Shown here piece after piece: positions 1 to 6,797 of a DNA stretch of 6,797 nucleotides. The first letter of the stretch is position 1. Every line of letters begins with the position of its first letter. The notes beneath the pieces were generated by a model. That model was not told the origin of the DNA. It was given only the letters and a program-made list of their open reading frames with translations, and searched no databases. Source of the DNA: a virus (Duplodnaviria > Heunggongvirae > Uroviricota > Caudoviricetes); IMG/VR virus record IMGVR_UViG_2690316105_000023, positions 1 through 6,797 of that record; one strand, written 5' to 3'. Made by a program: the position numbers and the translations under genes.

Positions 1-315
1 TCATGATTCCACCTCTCCGGTTTTAACGTTGATGGTTGTTACCTGTTCCGCTTCGGCAATCTCCCGTTCTGTCAGCGTGGCAAAGTTTGCAGCTGCCGTT
101 GTCATGAATGCGCTTATCAGTTCGGGATTCTCCTTCGCGTATCCTTCCCGTGTGTGGCGGTCTATAACTTTGATTGCCACCTTTAGGGAAAGCTCTGTCA
201 TGTCTAACGCTTTATATTTTTGCTGTGTTCTGTCTCTGCGCATTTTGGTCATTTGTCGCCCCTGATTCATGTTTTCGGTCGGCATGTTTGTTAAGTGATT
301 TTGATGTATGCACAT
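1..315 (-). CDS. Hypothetical protein, 5' portion only (runs off the left edge)
   Basis: Open frame with two candidate starts: ATG 315 (GGGGG SD, 9-nt spacer) or ATG 252 (AGGGG SD, 6-nt spacer; MTKMRRDRTQQKYKALDMTELSLKVAIKVIDRH...). No stop within the window. Function unknown. Confidence 0.5.
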   Translation of the reverse strand: MCIHQNHLTNMPTENMNQGRQMTKMRRDRTQQKYKALDMTELSLKVAIKVIDRHTREGYAKENPELISAFMTTAAANFATLTEREIAEAEQVTTINVKTGEVES

Positions 316-361
316 TTATTTTTACCCCCTCGTTTAAAAAGTTTTAGGTTGTGGTGCACCT

Positions 362-587
362 CCTCTACCTCTCTACCTAATCATCTTTCAGGTCAGTAAT
401 GGCGCGGCTTTCAGATGGGTAGAGGGCTTTCGTGGCCCTCTACCCATCATCTACCCGCCCCTCACAAACAACCTTAATCATGGTGGAGGGGGTAGAGGGC
501 TTTTATTTGCCTTCTACCTGCCCCTCTACCCACTTATCATATTGAATAATTTATATTTATTTTCTTTAGGTAGAAGAGGTAGAGGGC
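362..587. repeat. Iteron cluster, putative origin of replication
   Basis: At least nine copies of the 7-bp core CTCTACC / GGTAGAG in both orientations: 363-369, 371-377, 418-424, 438-444, 450-455 (partial), 492-498, 512-518 (variant), 524-530, 569-575 (variant), 578-584. Includes the inverted pair GGTAGAGGGC-N7-GCCCTCTACC (418-444) and an AT-rich stretch at 532-567. Starts right after the primase stop. Confidence 0.7.
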
Positions 588-599
588 TTTTGTCTAAAA

Positions 600-2354
600 T
601 TATAAAAACGCGTCGCAATCCTCTGTTGTTGTCACATTGGTTTGCGTAAGTCCTTTAACCCTGCGCGTTATATATTCACATCCGTAAACTTTTGCCGCTG
701 GCTTCATGGCCTTGCTGAAATCAGCCACGTTTAGCGGCTTGCTTCTTCCTGCGTATGCCATAAACGCCAGATAGACGCGGTAAAGGCTGTTTCTGGTCGT
801 GTACTTCACTGAATCGCCACCGCCACCCATCATCAGGCCGCGCGCTTCCTCCAGAAAATTCAGGAACTGGCAAAACTCAATAACCGGATCCGTCTGTTGC
901 TTTATTGCCAGTGCTTCATCACCGTCACGCTGTTCCAGTAGTAAAGCCCGTGCCTTCTCAGGGTCGGCAAAGTTCGCCAGTAATCGGCGGATAATCACAG
1001 GGATTTCAGCCGCGACCTTCTCCGGCAAATCCTTGTCCTTTTCTGCCTCGCTAACGATATTGTCAAAGCGAAAAATAACCCGACGACGTGCCACGCCTCC
1101 GGCCCGTTCGGTGAATATCATCGGGTTGTTGTTGGTCGTCAGCACCACCGCCCTGATTACCGCCGTGAAACGCTTTTCATATTTCGGGTTAATTTCCACG
1201 GGGTCGCCGCCCGTGATTTTCTTGATGCCCGTTCCTTCGCCTGTATATTTCGGCTGGTCTGCCAGGACGATAAGACGACTCCCGACAACCTGCGCACGTC
1301 CACCAGCATCATCAAGCGATGTCATTTCAGCGCTTACCGTGTTCTGTTTCCCTGCCAGAAGGCTGGCTATGTGCGTGAATGTACTTTTACCGCTTCCGCC
1401 GTCTCCGGTGGCCTCAATAAACATCTGCCAGTCGTACCGGTTCGCCATAATCATGTACAGCGCGGCACATATACGCATCATCTTGCGCGGGTCTTTTCCG
1501 GCTGCGTGCTCAAGCCATTTATGAAAATTTGGCGCGTTATCGCGGATGTTCTCCCCTGGTGCTGGTGGCGTGTACTCAATACCGTTGTGCGTGGTGATCC
1601 AGTTCTCCGGCGTGTGCGGGGAAAATTCCCCCGTTTTCAGGTCAAGCGCACCATTGGCGAACGGCAACAAATCGCCGGACGGCTCGCCCATTGGTTCGGC
1701 AATAACTTTTAACGCTTCCACGGCGTTATTGATTACGCGCTTGCTGAAAGTGGCCCTGTGCTCTGAATAGATCGCCACCATTTCGCGGCTAAGTTCCATT
1801 GTGCTGACCGGACACCATACCCCGCCGCGCCATACGTGAACGATTTCACTTTCAGGATGTACGCAAACGCCATCAAAGCGATCGGCAAGCAGCTGCGCGC
1901 GCTCACTGTCCGCCATCTGCGAAAGTTGCGCCTTTTGCTTTACCGGAAGCTCAATGACCAGACCATCAGAAAGATTCTGGCGCTCACGGGCCAGATATTC
2001 GCGCCAGTTCTCCACCTTCTGACCGTGCATACCATCAGGGTAAAAATTTGCATCCTGTACGCCTGCCGCCGCCAGCTTCTGGCCAATCGCCTTTATCATT
2101 ACTGGCGCAAGATATCCGGCCCTGAATATGCGCACGGATTTTCTGCCTTCCGGCACAATTTGCAGCTTATCCAGTTCTGATAACTGCTGCTCCCCAAGCC
2201 ACACAGGAGGCTCATTATCTCCGGCCATACGCGCATCATGTTCCTGCCATTGTTTCGCGTGTGCCCAGGCATCACTACCCGCAAAAATAATGACTTCTGT
2301 TCCTTTGTGTTTTATGCCGCGTGACTGCTGTTTTACGTTCGGTGCCAGTTTCAT
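600..2354 (-). CDS. Primase/helicase-type replication initiator (P4 alpha-like / PICI Pri-Rep-like, SF3 P-loop NTPase)
   Basis: 584-aa ORF with AGGGG SD 6 nt upstream of the ATG. Walker A motif GDGGSGKST and Walker B-like RLIVLADQ are present; the gene sits directly upstream of an iteron cluster. Confidence 0.9.
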   Translation of the reverse strand: MKLAPNVKQQSRGIKHKGTEVIIFAGSDAWAHAKQWQEHDARMAGDNEPPVWLGEQQLSELDKLQIVPEGRKSVRIFRAGYLAPVMIKAIGQKLAAAGVQDANFYPDGMHGQKVENWREYLARERQNLSDGLVIELPVKQKAQLSQMADSERAQLLADRFDGVCVHPESEIVHVWRGGVWCPVSTMELSREMVAIYSEHRATFSKRVINNAVEALKVIAEPMGEPSGDLLPFANGALDLKTGEFSPHTPENWITTHNGIEYTPPAPGENIRDNAPNFHKWLEHAAGKDPRKMMRICAALYMIMANRYDWQMFIEATGDGGSGKSTFTHIASLLAGKQNTVSAEMTSLDDAGGRAQVVGSRLIVLADQPKYTGEGTGIKKITGGDPVEINPKYEKRFTAVIRAVVLTTNNNPMIFTERAGGVARRRVIFRFDNIVSEAEKDKDLPEKVAAEIPVIIRRLLANFADPEKARALLLEQRDGDEALAIKQQTDPVIEFCQFLNFLEEARGLMMGGGGDSVKYTTRNSLYRVYLAFMAYAGRSKPLNVADFSKAMKPAAKVYGCEYITRRVKGLTQTNVTTTEDCDAFL

Positions 2355-2650
2355 TTTTTACCCCTGAATCCGTTAATCATGGTTTTCAGCTTCTGGATGT
2401 TTGCCCGTGCCCTGGCGTTGCTGGTGGGCACGTTATGCGGCGCGGTCTGTACCAGAGAAAAATCACGCCGGAACTGATAAACAGGCATCACGCAATCATA
2501 TTCGTAACCTTCACGGCGGTAGGTTACGCGCCGTTCTTCCACGCCCTTAATCATTACCGTGCCGCCGTACTGGTCGCGGTAAATATCACCGCGCGTAAAT
2601 TTAGGGTGAGTGTTGCCACTGGCAGTTAAGCCAGAATATTTAAGTTTCAT
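2351..2650 (-). CDS. Hypothetical protein, 99 aa, translationally coupled to the primase gene
   Basis: GGAG upstream of ATG 2650; its TGA stop overlaps the primase ATG (ATGA). No family recognised. Confidence 0.7.
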   Translation of the reverse strand: MKLKYSGLTASGNTHPKFTRGDIYRDQYGGTVMIKGVEERRVTYRREGYEYDCVMPVYQFRRDFSLVQTAPHNVPTSNARARANIQKLKTMINGFRGKK

Positions 2651-2655
2651 TATTT

Positions 2656-2889
2656 TTATTCTCCGGTGTGCTGTTCTTTATATCTGTCGTGCAATAGATC
2701 TATTTCTTGCAGTTCCATTATTACAGGCTCAAGAAGCGTTATTAATGCCGTGGCAATTCTTGATTTTTGTTTGTCGCGTTCATTGTCGCCAAGTGTTTCA
2801 AGCCATATGCGCAATATTTCCAGCATGTTTTCACTGTGAGAAAGTGCAAGAAATGCGCGGTCTATTGTTTCGAGGTAAATATCACGCAT
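2656..2889 (-). CDS. Hypothetical protein, 77 aa
   Basis: GAGGATG SD about 6 nt upstream of ATG 2889; the gene start overlaps the preceding gene's stop. No family recognised. Confidence 0.65.
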   Translation of the reverse strand: MRDIYLETIDRAFLALSHSENMLEILRIWLETLGDNERDKQKSRIATALITLLEPVIMELQEIDLLHDRYKEQHTGE

Positions 2890-3328
2890 GGCTTACATCC
2901 TCAGGAAATTTTCTTCTGTAACGCGCCTCTGCCACATATTCCGCATAATCGGCGGCGATATTCAGTACATCAAGTCCCGTTGATTTATATTCTTTCGTGG
3001 AAAGTAAGAAAAAAGCCGCTCTAATAAGTTCTGGCATTGACGAAAGCGCATCAGCCGCATCATCAGGAACGCCGGAAAATTCCTGTTTCAGGGAATTAAA
3101 ACGATCATCACGCATAACCCCCCCATTTTCACAATCAGCAACAAGAATATTTTTAGCGTCATTCAGCGACCGCGTAGCGGTGTATCGGATATATTCCAGG
3201 GCTAACGTTGTCCGGTCTTTCTGTTCTTCTCCCTGCGCAAGCTCTGCCGTGCATTCAATATCAATAAGCGCGTGCATCAGCGTAGTGAGTGCGGCTGCTG
3301 CGTTCGGTGTGGTTTTATTCTGCAACAT
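2882..3328 (-). CDS. Hypothetical protein, 148 aa
   Basis: GGAG 7 nt upstream of ATG 3328; stop overlaps the next start (ATGCGTGA). No family recognised by eye. Confidence 0.7.
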   Translation of the reverse strand: MLQNKTTPNAAAALTTLMHALIDIECTAELAQGEEQKDRTTLALEYIRYTATRSLNDAKNILVADCENGGVMRDDRFNSLKQEFSGVPDDAADALSSMPELIRAAFFLLSTKEYKSTGLDVLNIAADYAEYVAEARYRRKFPEDVSHA

Positions 3329-3533
3329 ATCTTAACTCCACTGAACTTACGTATTTACACGGGTTTCCTTTTACCTGTCGCACACGGTAGGAATCGTTTT
3401 TAATCACTTCCGCTATTTGCCCAAACTTTTTTACCGCTGTACGGCGGCTCTTGTAGCGGTAAGTGTTTATCTCCCTTCTGCTCATTACCGCTTCATTGTG
3501 ATATCTGGTTATCACTATCAGCACTTCAAACAT
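3315..3533 (-). CDS. Hypothetical protein (72 aa from ATG 3533; ORF track starts at a TTG at 3563)
   Basis: AGGGGG 6 nt upstream of ATG 3533; product MFEVLIVITRYHNEAVMSRREINTYRYKSRRTAVKKFGQIAEVIKNDSYRVRQVKGNPCKYVSSVELRYVAE. Its 3' end overlaps the next gene start by 14 nt. Confidence 0.6.
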   Translation of the reverse strand: MFEVLIVITRYHNEAVMSRREINTYRYKSRRTAVKKFGQIAEVIKNDSYRVRQVKGNPCKYVSSVELRYVAE

Positions 3534-3696
3534 GACGCACCCCCTGACGAATACGGGCGACAAAAATCAGATGTGCGTGCGGCAACTGGGCGCGGGCTTC
3601 GCGTTCAGTGGCTGCGGTAACGGTGTAAATATCAATGCTGCTGTGGTGGCACTGCATAAAGCGCCAGACAAAGTAAGGGCGTGCGGATACAGCCAT
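3526..3696 (-). CDS. Small protein, paralog A1 (56 aa), unknown function; may instead be the C-terminal part of a longer ORF 3526-3990
   Basis: GGGAG 8 nt upstream of ATG 3696; product MAVSARPYFVWRFMQCHHSSIDIYTVTAATEREARAQLPHAHLIFVARIRQGVRHV, paralogous to A2. The stop overlaps the ATG of the next gene (ATGTTTGA). The same frame stays open upstream to 3990/4032, so a 154/168-aa fusion is an alternative. Confidence 0.5.
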   Translation of the reverse strand: MAVSARPYFVWRFMQCHHSSIDIYTVTAATEREARAQLPHAHLIFVARIRQGVRHV

Positions 3697-3861
3697 GTGA
3701 AAGGCTCCCAATTTAATGTTAAGGAGTCTCACCACTACGCTGCTAAACGGGGTGGCGAGACGTAACAGGGTTAGCAGACTGGCAAATTGGGAAACCAGCG
3801 AGCGCAAAGGCTCCCCCGTTACGCCCCGCCATAATGCGGGTATGGGTAGGTTTACGGACAC

Positions 3862-3985
3862 AAAAAAACCGCTTATCGGATATGGGCGGCTGTCCGCCAA
3901 TTTATTCAGGCTGCTAAACCCGGTCGCCATGTGGGCGACGGGTGAAGCATACAGCCCCGTGATAATTTTTTGCAAGCGGTTTTTA
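3862..3985 (-). ncRNA. Candidate structured RNA element between the two paralogs (speculative; possible immunity/attenuator RNA)
   Basis: On the minus-strand transcript a long-range helix (AAAAACCGCUUG pairing with AAGCGGUUUUU) encloses three local hairpins: GGCUG/CAGCC, a 10-bp ACCCGUCGCC/GGCGACCGGGU stem, and GGCGG-ACAG-CCGCC. It ends in a U7 run. It overlaps an open frame (MSKNRLQK...), so a coding interpretation is not excluded. Confidence 0.2.
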
Positions 3986-4180
3986 CTCATGATGTGACCC
4001 CTGACGAATACGAGCGGCAAATACAGCAACACAACCTGACGGGCAACGGCTACGCGCTTCGCGTTCCGTCCAGGCGGTTACGTGGATGATTTGAGATTCT
4101 CCGGCACTCAGGGCCAGAAAACGCCACACAAAGGCCGTTTGTGTGTGTACAAGGTGTGTTATATGATTTACGGCAACCAT
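3983..4180 (-). CDS. Small protein, paralog A2 (65 aa), unknown function
   Basis: AGGAG 5 nt upstream of ATG 4180; product MVAVNHITHLVHTQTAFVWRFLALSAGESQIIHVTAWTEREARSRCPSGCVAVFAARIRQGSHHE. Shares FVWRF, VTAxTEREAR and ARIRQG with A1, and the nucleotide differences in the conserved core are mostly synonymous in this frame. The stop overlaps a downstream ATG (3988-3990) in an ATGAGTAA arrangement. Confidence 0.55.
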   Translation of the reverse strand: MVAVNHITHLVHTQTAFVWRFLALSAGESQIIHVTAWTEREARSRCPSGCVAVFAARIRQGSHHE

Positions 4181-5006: not shown

Positions 5007-5195
5007 TTAATGAACTGCCTTGCAGCTATCCTTCCAGGCCAGAACCTCGGATAAAGACCAGCCAACGGAACGACCGCCAAGTTTACGACGTGATGGGAAT
5101 TGTCCGGCCTTTTCCAGGCGGTAGCGGCATGAGCGGCTAAGGCCTGTTAGCTTTTCGCATTCTTTTTCACGTATAAACCGATCAGTGCTTAACAC
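5007..5195 (-). CDS. alpA: AlpA-family phage transcriptional regulator (excisionase-like HTH)
   Basis: 62-aa ORF with the AlpA signature EKLTGLSRSCRYRLEKAGQFPSRRKLGGRSVGWSLSEVLAW. GTG start preceded by a strong SD (AAGGGGG, 5-nt spacer). It sits immediately downstream of int, as in CP4-57-type elements. Confidence 0.85.
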   Translation of the reverse strand: MLSTDRFIREKECEKLTGLSRSCRYRLEKAGQFPSRRKLGGRSVGWSLSEVLAWKDSCKAVH

Positions 5196-5579: not shown

Positions 5580-6797
5580 TTATTTTCTTCTGGCTACTGG
5601 TAGCGTGGTTACGTTTTCATGTGTTCCCGCCAGTATCCCTAACCGCTCCATCCACATATCCAGCGCATTGCGTTTAGCATCCAGATAACGGGAATGATTA
5701 TAAACTCGCTGAATTCCTGGCATCTGATGACCTGTAAGCTGCTCCACGACATGCGGATCAACGCCTAAATCGTTCAGCATGGTTGTAAAGGTGCGCCGGA
5801 TGTCATGCAGTGACCAGTGAGGATGATTAAGCCTCCTGTGCGCTAATCTTCCATACTGCGATACGCTGGCCTCCTGTTTCACTTCCCCCAGCAATAAGCC
5901 CGTGTGCCTGTTCTGCTCCACCAGCTGCGTGACGAACGGCAGGATCGCTTCCGGTATGGGCCGGAATATTGCGACCTTCGTTTTGCTGTGCTCCTTCGGA
6001 ACGGTCCATAGCATTTCCGTAAAATCCCACTCCCCGATCTCCGATAGCCTCAGTTCTACCGTCCTGGCTCCGAAGACAATCAGGAGGCGGATTAACGCGA
6101 CGTAGTAAGGGGAAAATATTTTTTTGTCCAGTGCCTGCAATAATTCGCCAAGTTCTTTGTTACTTAAGACACGTTCGCTTATATCCGGTTTTTTCCCAAC
6201 GTCCGCCACGTTCAGATCGTCCAGAACGTTGCTGATTGCATAGCGCCGCCTACGGCAGAACTTAAGCGCCTGTTTGCACGCCTGTAGCACGAATCCGGCA
6301 GTAACAGGCGTTCGCTTTGCCACCTGGTCAAAACAGGCCAGCCAGTGCCGTAGCTCGCATTTATCCAGCGGCATAGCACCAATCTGCTGTATTACGTGAT
6401 TATTAAGTCGCCTTTTCAGGGCGATATAATCCACGCGGTTTTCCTTTACGTAATACTCAAGCCAGTAGGTGAGCGCATCGCCAACCGTTACGGGCTTTAA
6501 CGCTTCCTGTACGGTGTAATTCATCTCATGACGTGGATTTTTCCCCTCAGCCAGCCATGTGCGACACTGTGCGGCTTTTTCCCTGGCTGCTTTCAGGCTC
6601 AGATCAGGATAACTTCCCAGCTTAATGCGTTCGGGTCGTGTCTCCCTTCCCGTTCCGGCCCTGTATGTGAAATACCAGGTCAATTTCCCTGATGTTAAAT
6701 ATTTCACGCTCAGGTTTCCGCCATCACTATAAAACGTGTTTTTCTCCGCTGGCTTACCATGAAGTTTCCTTAGCAAGGTATCGCTCAGTTTGTTCAT
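5580..6797 (-). CDS. int: Tyrosine recombinase / site-specific integrase, P4-type
   Basis: 405-aa ORF. N-terminus MNKLSDTLLRKLHGKPAEKNTFYSDGGNLSVKYLTSGKLTWYFTYR is typical of the P4-integrase arm-binding domain; C-terminus has the catalytic-core signature (HDIRRTF ... HQMPGIQRVYNHSRY). The ATG lies on the last three bases of the window, so the upstream RBS and promoter are not visible. Confidence 0.93.
   Translation of the reverse strand: MNKLSDTLLRKLHGKPAEKNTFYSDGGNLSVKYLTSGKLTWYFTYRAGTGRETRPERIKLGSYPDLSLKAAREKAAQCRTWLAEGKNPRHEMNYTVQEALKPVTVGDALTYWLEYYVKENRVDYIALKRRLNNHVIQQIGAMPLDKCELRHWLACFDQVAKRTPVTAGFVLQACKQALKFCRRRRYAISNVLDDLNVADVGKKPDISERVLSNKELGELLQALDKKIFSPYYVALIRLLIVFGARTVELRLSEIGEWDFTEMLWTVPKEHSKTKVAIFRPIPEAILPFVTQLVEQNRHTGLLLGEVKQEASVSQYGRLAHRRLNHPHWSLHDIRRTFTTMLNDLGVDPHVVEQLTGHQMPGIQRVYNHSRYLDAKRNALDMWMERLGILAGTHENVTTLPVARRK

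Follow-up and report, generated by a model that had tools for sequence, protein, structure and literature searches.

The stretch of DNA analysed here (the window, 6,797 nt of the caudoviricete virus record IMGVR_UViG_2690316105_000023) carries on its minus strand an integrase gene (5580-6797), an AlpA regulator gene (5007-5195), small ORFs, a DUF4222 gene (2351-2650) and a 584-aa ORF (600-2354). The latter is annotated as a 'DNA primase family protein' and corresponds to the Pri-Rep replication initiator of PICIs. The packaging module and the att site fall outside the window and are present in relatives that are 92-96% identical to it. The closest complete relative, L001, is a ~15-kb island inserted in tqsA and 96% identical over window positions 1-4094, in which the repeat cluster described below is followed downstream by ssb, perC, a capsid gene and genes for a protease, a portal, HNH, TerS and TerL. 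Such a set of genes is characteristic of capsid-forming PICIs (cf-PICIs) of the EcCIEDL933 kind. We infer from this relative that the window element belongs to the same class, since the packaging genes lie beyond the end of the window and none of the complete E. coli genomes, where the best match is ~95% identical, includes an exact copy of it. Parts of the window nevertheless match 1765 of 5426 such genomes, its origin region matches 565, and the region of the repeat array is found in hundreds of E. coli chromosomes, each time beside a gene for a 'DNA primase family protein'.

At the opposite end of the gene block, positions 1-315 (minus strand) hold a small ORF that matches PHROG 1231 (function unassigned) and is followed by ssb in related elements. 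Its true start is probably M22 (250-252), since the PHROG match covers residues 22-104 only. Related islands contain two alternative 5' versions of this ORF, one of them with ~60 nt extra starting ATGTGCATACATCAAAATCAC, and these versions are independent of the iteron dialects discussed below. On the same strand, upstream of Icd-like ORFs, we found a C4 antisense RNA (3748-3836; Rfam RF01695, 74 bits for a gathering score of 45, E 1.6e-13) together with the a1/b1 target repeats of C4 RNA (3903-3952; RF03163, 44.4 bits, slightly below the gathering score); the corresponding annotation in L001 is that of frameshifted icd-like and ash pseudogenes. These features belong to a c4-icd immunity cassette of the P1/P7/P4 type within the island.

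A gap of 12 nt separates the repeat array (362-587) from the stop codon of the 584-aa ORF (600-602), and the array thus lies directly 3' of the gene, as the preliminary description had placed it. It consists of ten GGTAGA/TCTACC hexamers in 364-583, including seven exact GGTAGAG, and of one degenerate copy, GGTGGA (482-487). The exact 7-mer occurs seven times in the window, each time within 363-584, for an expectation of 0.25, and none of 200 shuffles reached that number. The hexamer occurs 11 times in the window, with ten copies in 364-583, for 1.54 expected window-wide and a shuffle maximum of five. The initial count of nine or more CTCTACC/GGTAGAG cores therefore stands if the last base is allowed to vary (GGTAGAA twice and GGTAGAT once in the array), but as exact 7-mers there are only seven. 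A longer 10-mer, GGTAGAGGGC, is repeated exactly at 418-427 (+), 435-444 (-), 491-500 (+) and 578-587 (+).

Read from the initiator gene outward, the array opens with a tandem iteron pair, GGTAGAAGA and GGTAGAGGGC (569-587, plus strand), whose hexamers are invariant at this place in related loci. It is followed by an AT-rich tract (532-568), which we propose as the DNA unwinding element, and, on the far side of this tract, by a second tandem pair on the minus strand (509-530; hexamers 513-518 and 525-530). The degenerate iteron and the GGTAGAGGGC copy at 491-500 come next (482-500, plus strand), the latter forming a near-palindrome with 509-518 across an 8-nt spacer. Beyond lies the segment 418-455, in which GGTAGAGGGC (418-427, +) and GCCCTCTACC (435-444) make up the perfect inverted repeat of 10 nt with a 7-nt spacer that had already been noticed, joined by a minus-strand iteron at 450-455. 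A non-iteron block of 21 nt in gene sense, CTGAAAGCCGCGCCATTACTG (394-414, minus strand), and a distal tandem pair on the minus strand (364-377; hexamers 364-369 and 372-377) complete the array. The distal edge of the origin is marked by a conserved leader (316-345, minus strand) that carries the Shine-Dalgarno sequence AAAACTTTTTAAACGAGGGGGTAAAAATAAA of the next gene.

The AT-rich stretch pointed out from the outset reaches 89% A+T (532-567), and no other 36-mer of the 6.8 kb is as unstable as 533-568, which has a nearest-neighbour dG of -33.5 kcal/mol for a mean of -49.5 (sd 3.9), about 4 sd under the window mean in stability. As in PICI origins, this tract is flanked by iteron pairs (509-530 and 569-587), and these pairs point away from each other. 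In addition, the iteron centres are phased at ~10.7 bp (R 0.84, a value reached by 18 of 5000 random sets), which places the sites on one side of the helix. The whole differs from the iteron origins of theta plasmids (17-22-bp direct repeats, a WH1-WH2 Rep and usually DnaA boxes), since the repeats are 6-10 nt long and lie in both orientations, the scan for DnaA boxes in the origin stayed at chance level without any excess, and the initiator is an SF3 helicase.

The initiator protein displays D5_N and DUF5906 domains, the latter with an SF3 helicase P-loop, and a C-terminal Pox_D5/winged-helix region. Its residues 194-432 match the SaPI5 primase-helicase 7OLA. At the C-terminus, where the Pfam Pox_D5 match is weak, residues 488-579 align with residues 2-92 of PDB 1KA8, the origin-binding domain of P4 alpha (phmmer E 2.7e-7), and codons 488-579 (618-893, minus strand) are thus predicted to encode a winged-helix origin-binding domain homologous to that of P4 alpha. 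In the study of 1KA8, the P4 domain was reportedly proposed to bind DNA in an RFX1-like manner, leaning heavily on the wing, which counts against the role of helix alpha3 considered below. P4 alpha unites a primase of the DnaG type with an SF3 helicase and, at its C-terminus, a winged helix whose helix alpha2 contains two conserved tyrosines (PMC2777425). These tyrosines correspond to the motif LYRVYLAF of the window protein, so that the next helix, residues 543-556 (687-728, minus strand), would be alpha3, the canonical recognition helix, which holds A544 (723-725) and S547 (714-716). A single-sequence AF2 model, of low confidence as a whole (pLDDT 58, ~80 for helix 543-556), agrees with these boundaries, and the placement of residues 544 and 547 in alpha3 is accordingly a prediction from homology and from this low-confidence model. 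The homologue search made for winged-helix modelling returned proteins that were all 97-98% identical and hence no deep alignment.

The gene had been called a primase, which agrees with its annotation. However, Pfam finds neither the Zn-ribbon nor the Toprim domain in the window protein, not even when the threshold is relaxed to E <= 1 for residues 1-150, while both are detected in P4 alpha and in the Morganella homologue presented below. As far as domain searches can tell, the label thus has no backing from a recognisable primase domain, in contrast to the situation in P4 alpha. Residues 1-150 (1905-2354, minus strand) match only PHROG 2850 (function unassigned), and they are the most variable part of the initiator among alleles (46-100% identity).

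Integrase, alpA, DUF4222, initiator gene and array succeed each other on one strand, in keeping with the pri-ori arrangement of PICIs that had been proposed for this locus, and the array is collinear with the intergenic region of EcCICFT073 (NC_004431.1, 1377000-1390000), an element whose origin has been tested. The 288-nt intergenic region of EcCICFT073 aligns end to end with window positions 316-599 at ~70% identity and with the hexamers in register, and the initiators of both elements are 97% identical. When the published primers are mapped, the pri-delta-ori plasmid of EcCICFT073 ends 4 nt past the stop codon and the pri-ori plasmid extends to the next ORF (PMC6092414); the tested 'ori' is therefore the exact homologue of the window array. 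With a temperature-sensitive plasmid at 44 degrees C, deletion of rep abolished maintenance, and deletion of ori reduced it significantly, with fewer colonies although not to the point of abolition (PMC6092414, Fillol-Salom et al. 2018, ISME J). In the same work, a plasmid could be maintained with nothing more than the cloned pri-ori fragment (PMC6092414). In both elements, the origin starts a few nt past the stop codon of a 584-aa initiator, and has the same length and hexamers at the same 10-11 positions. The invariant block of 21 nt, the AT tract and the leader located downstream are common to both as well. The two elements differ in the bases that follow the hexamer (RGG(C) in the window versus YAG in EcCICFT073), in one iteron group (two forward and two reverse copies versus one and three) and in two initiator residues (A544/S547 versus N544/G547). 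Their genomic context is also distinct, since, among complete elements, the one closest to the window is a capsid-forming PICI in tqsA, whereas EcCICFT073 is a lambda-cos PICI located between roxA(ycfD) and phoQ.

A second point of comparison is phage P4, for which an iteron of another octamer had been indicated. This proved correct, as NC_001609 annotates TGTTCACC as 'ori type 1 repeat'. P4 contains 11 exact copies of it and no GGTAGA, while the window has no exact copy and only four one-mismatch matches, all outside the array. Nonetheless, the contrast drawn between the two iterons has to be tempered, because the motifs are close relatives, as illustrated by the related 9-mers GGTGAACAG in P4, GGTAGACAG or GGTAGATAG in EcCICFT073 and GGTAGAGGG in the window. 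The distinct origin specificity that had been deduced from this contrast is plausible, given the homology of the C-terminal domain to the P4 origin-binding domain. P4 resembles the window in its homologous SF3 helicase with C-terminal winged helix (39.7% identity over residues 141-580), in its short iterons in both orientations and in the presence of a cluster (crr in P4) directly 3' of the initiator gene. It differs by its two iteron clusters, ori and crr, located 4.5 kb apart, where PICIs have one, by a terminator between alpha and crr that is not seen in the window and by another arrangement of the crr cluster. Homologues at 35-55% identity in Serratia (L015), in Morganella (L016), in the 'phage' KppS-Ant (L018) and on IMG/VR contigs keep the same layout of stop codon, two tandem iterons, ~37 nt of A+T and inverted iterons, with the motifs GGTGAACA, ATGAACA, GGTATACAT and GGTGTTCAT. 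The AT tract is equal in length and place in the CFT073, Serratia, Morganella and KppS-Ant relatives.

The SaPI5 primase-helicase 7OLA is distantly related to the window helicase core (E 4e-15), but SaPIs have no detectable DNA homology to the window and differ in their iterons and origin-binding domain. In SaPIs, Rep and ori pair in a sequence-specific, cognate manner. The core origin of SV40 resembles the window by its inverted short binding sites beside an AT-rich element. As in the window, origin recognition and SF3 helicase are united in one polypeptide in SV40, in papillomavirus and in the archaeal plasmid pRN1, although none of their origins is related in sequence to the window and the viral origin-binding domains are of a different fold. 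In pRN1, an essential cis region lies 3' of the replication gene, according to PMC4234260 and PMC2777425, and no iterons were found (PMC2777425).

A comparison of iterons among homologous elements, as had been advised, was carried out on 90 related loci representing 61 distinct ori sequences; the scan of genome contigs gave three loci only and the useful diversity came from IMG/VR scans. The hexamers occupy the same 10-11 positions in the 90 loci while the spacers vary, and in the 61 ori sequences the mean column entropy is 0.257 in the hexamers versus 0.642 elsewhere, a difference matched by one of 10000 random placements. The conserved unit is the hexamer GGTAGA, the GGGC extension being confined to one allele group. 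Besides the hexamers, the 21-nt block CTGAAAGCCGCGCCATTACTG is invariant or nearly so across both dialects in the 61 ori sequences, the more divergent L009 and L010 showing two substitutions. In connection with this block, the sequence CTGAAA is also present 3' of an iteron in P4 crr and in KppS-Ant. In the complete elements L001, EcCICFT073 and the Nissle PICI, GGTAGA forms one cluster, 3' of the initiator gene, and apart from it int contains at most a single isolated hexamer.

This comparison also disclosed two iteron dialects in E. coli, GGTAGA-RGG (window type) and GGTAGA-YAG (CFT073 type). Position 8 of the 9-mer is a G in the former and an A in the latter (8-11 of the 9-11 copies per element), and copies in the same orientation change in concert. 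In the 585-column protein alignment, only two columns split the dialect groups, A544/S547 versus N544/G547, both in the first turn of alpha3, and the dialect matches these residues in 89 of the 90 loci. The exception, L023 (also L102; IMGVR_UViG_3300029303_000153), associates a window-type A544/S547 helix with a CFT073-type origin through a clean junction near codons 553-558; coming from a metagenome, it may be either a natural recombinant or an assembly chimera. A search of full-text literature for GGTAGA together with 'iteron' gave nothing relevant; the iterons of PMC6092414 are displayed as an image (Fig. 2a), which falls outside the coverage of such a search.

Synonymous SNPs from codon 543 to the stop (block 543-575) are linked to the dialect as well, with a normalised mutual information of 0.7-0.9 in the block that falls to 0.45 and 0.16 within 30-66 nt upstream. 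The data show that a co-inherited block spans alpha3 through the origin. Since residues 544 and 547 sit inside this block of linked synonymous SNPs, physical linkage alone could produce their association with the dialect. We have therefore dropped covariation as a proof of residue-DNA contact and regard the association as suggestive only. That said, it is probably the first turn of alpha3 that recognises the bases following the hexamer, and the 544/547-dialect pattern fits a specificity switch while falling short of proof. Along the same lines, an invariant Phe precedes Gly547 in P4 and in all other relatives that have a ...CA... motif, and a Ser or Ala at that place goes with different motifs.

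A broader proposal, on which we would place somewhat less than even odds, is that the last 42 codons of the initiator (alpha3 onward) and the adjacent origin make up a portable specificity cassette. The substitutions N544A and G547S would then retarget the protein from GGTAGA-YAG to GGTAGA-RGG and define a separate replication-specificity group among E. coli PICIs, and the P4-alpha family would have diversified likewise into at least six iteron types (GGTGAACA, ATGAACA, GGTATACAT, GGTGTTCAT, GGTAGAYAG and GGTAGARGG). We also observed that the initiators of the IMG/VR contigs L170-L175 and L177 are 96% identical overall and 86% in their last 110 residues. Their iterons are GGTATACAT and GGTGTTCAT, respectively, and the residue equivalent to 547 is Ala in the former and Ser in the latter. 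Judging from these alignments, they appear to be a second case of a C-terminal domain and an origin swapped together.

Dialect-specific megablast searches located the window type at 92 places in 83 genomes, with at most three per genome, and the CFT073 type at 314 places in 306 genomes. Some complete E. coli genomes hold 2-4 origin copies, including copies of the same dialect. Mutual exclusion of co-resident origins of the same dialect was considered and rejected, as genomes with two or three such origins exist. This co-occurrence gives no support to a diversification driven by incompatibility.

Could the inverted repeats form hairpins, in RNA or as a cruciform, that serve as an attenuator, a terminator or a processing/stability element between the initiator gene and the ssb/perC/capsid genes? 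Transcribed from the minus strand, 330-602 folds much more stably than its shuffles (-111 kcal/mol, z = -9.3) and RNAalifold reports 12 pairs changed on both sides, but a strong fold is the automatic outcome of inverted copies of one motif, and the seemingly compensatory pairs coincide with the dialect positions. These positions also vary in copies of the same orientation, which are unable to pair together. The covariation term of RNAalifold is small (-1.48), and the rearranged arm of CFT073-type alleles (one forward and three reverse copies) breaks the hairpin while the number of motifs is kept. Moreover, none of the hairpins consists of a stem followed by a U-tract, no terminator-like site appeared in the scan of positions 1-1000, and no Rfam family obtained a meaningful score in the origin. 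We hence consider a role as hairpins very improbable. The same scan of 1-1000 revealed no sigma-70-like promoter, which speaks against operator sites (for AlpA or PerC as a regulator of the late operon), a reading for which the location of the array just upstream of the next gene block could be invoked. The repeats could equally be taken for a cos or pac site of the small terminase, since cosB and pac sites also comprise short motifs repeated in both orientations. Yet the array accompanies the initiator allele whichever of three unrelated packaging modules is present (a ClpP-capsid fusion, a lambda-type capsid/decoration module or an HK97-type one with HNH-TerS-TerL), which argues against a packaging or late-operator function. 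In EcCICFT073, cos1 and cos2 are lambda-like cosQ/cosN sequences that were tested in separate constructs (PMC6092414 supplement). Finally, from genus to genus, the family of motifs varies along with the winged-helix domain, and operator or packaging sites are the least credible of the readings that we weighed.

An alternative closer to replication is that the initiator binds the array as an enhancer or copy-control site, in the manner of P4 crr, and that initiation takes place at a separate origin in the island. It is in P4, after all, that crr and not ori is the cluster directly 3' of alpha, and the ori deletion of EcCICFT073 lowered colony formation without abolishing it (PMC6092414). Nevertheless, the single GGTAGA cluster of L001, EcCICFT073 and the Nissle PICI leaves no second iteron site for an ori, the array itself holds the least stable DNA of the window between diverging iteron pairs, and the EcCICFT073 pri-ori fragment sufficed on its own for plasmid maintenance (PMC6092414). 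This alternative is unlikely in our view.

We conclude, with a probability of about 85%, that a PICI of the EcCICFT073/EcCIEDL933 family has its vegetative replication origin in 362-587, where the 584-aa initiator would bind the GGTAGA iterons and melt the AT tract. The anatomy of the array, its homology to a tested origin, the homology of the initiator domains to those of P4 alpha and the conservation pattern all converge on this interpretation. After induction and excision of the PICI, the 584-aa protein, an SF3 helicase with a winged-helix origin-binding domain of the P4-alpha type, would bind the iterons through this C-terminal domain. The iterons would be presented on one face of the DNA, in tandem pairs of alternating orientation, with the pairs 509-530 and 569-587 bracketing the AT-rich tract of 37 bp. 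Initiators bound on both sides could then assemble into helicase rings, melt the tract and unwind outward. As the protein has no known primase domain, primers may be supplied either by host DnaG or by its N-terminal 150 residues. Should alpha3 read the RGG bases, the window element would fall into an origin-specificity group of its own. From the alignments, the window origin appears as an allelic relative of a described and tested PICI origin and as a cousin of the P4 iteron system; its variant repeat dialect may be new, and it is otherwise an ordinary PICI origin.

To conclude, our analysis places the origin of the window island, and of ~160 E. coli islands of the same dialect, in a segment of 230 bp that is homologous to the one tested PICI origin of Gram-negative bacteria, and it designates residues 544 and 547 of the initiator as two candidate specificity determinants. 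Avoidance of co-resident copies does not seem to be the purpose of the dialects, as some genomes contain two or three origins that share one dialect. Several satellites do share one cell, as complete E. coli genomes attest, and should RGG and YAG prove not to be interchangeable, these dialects would decide which satellite initiator fires which origin in such shared cells.
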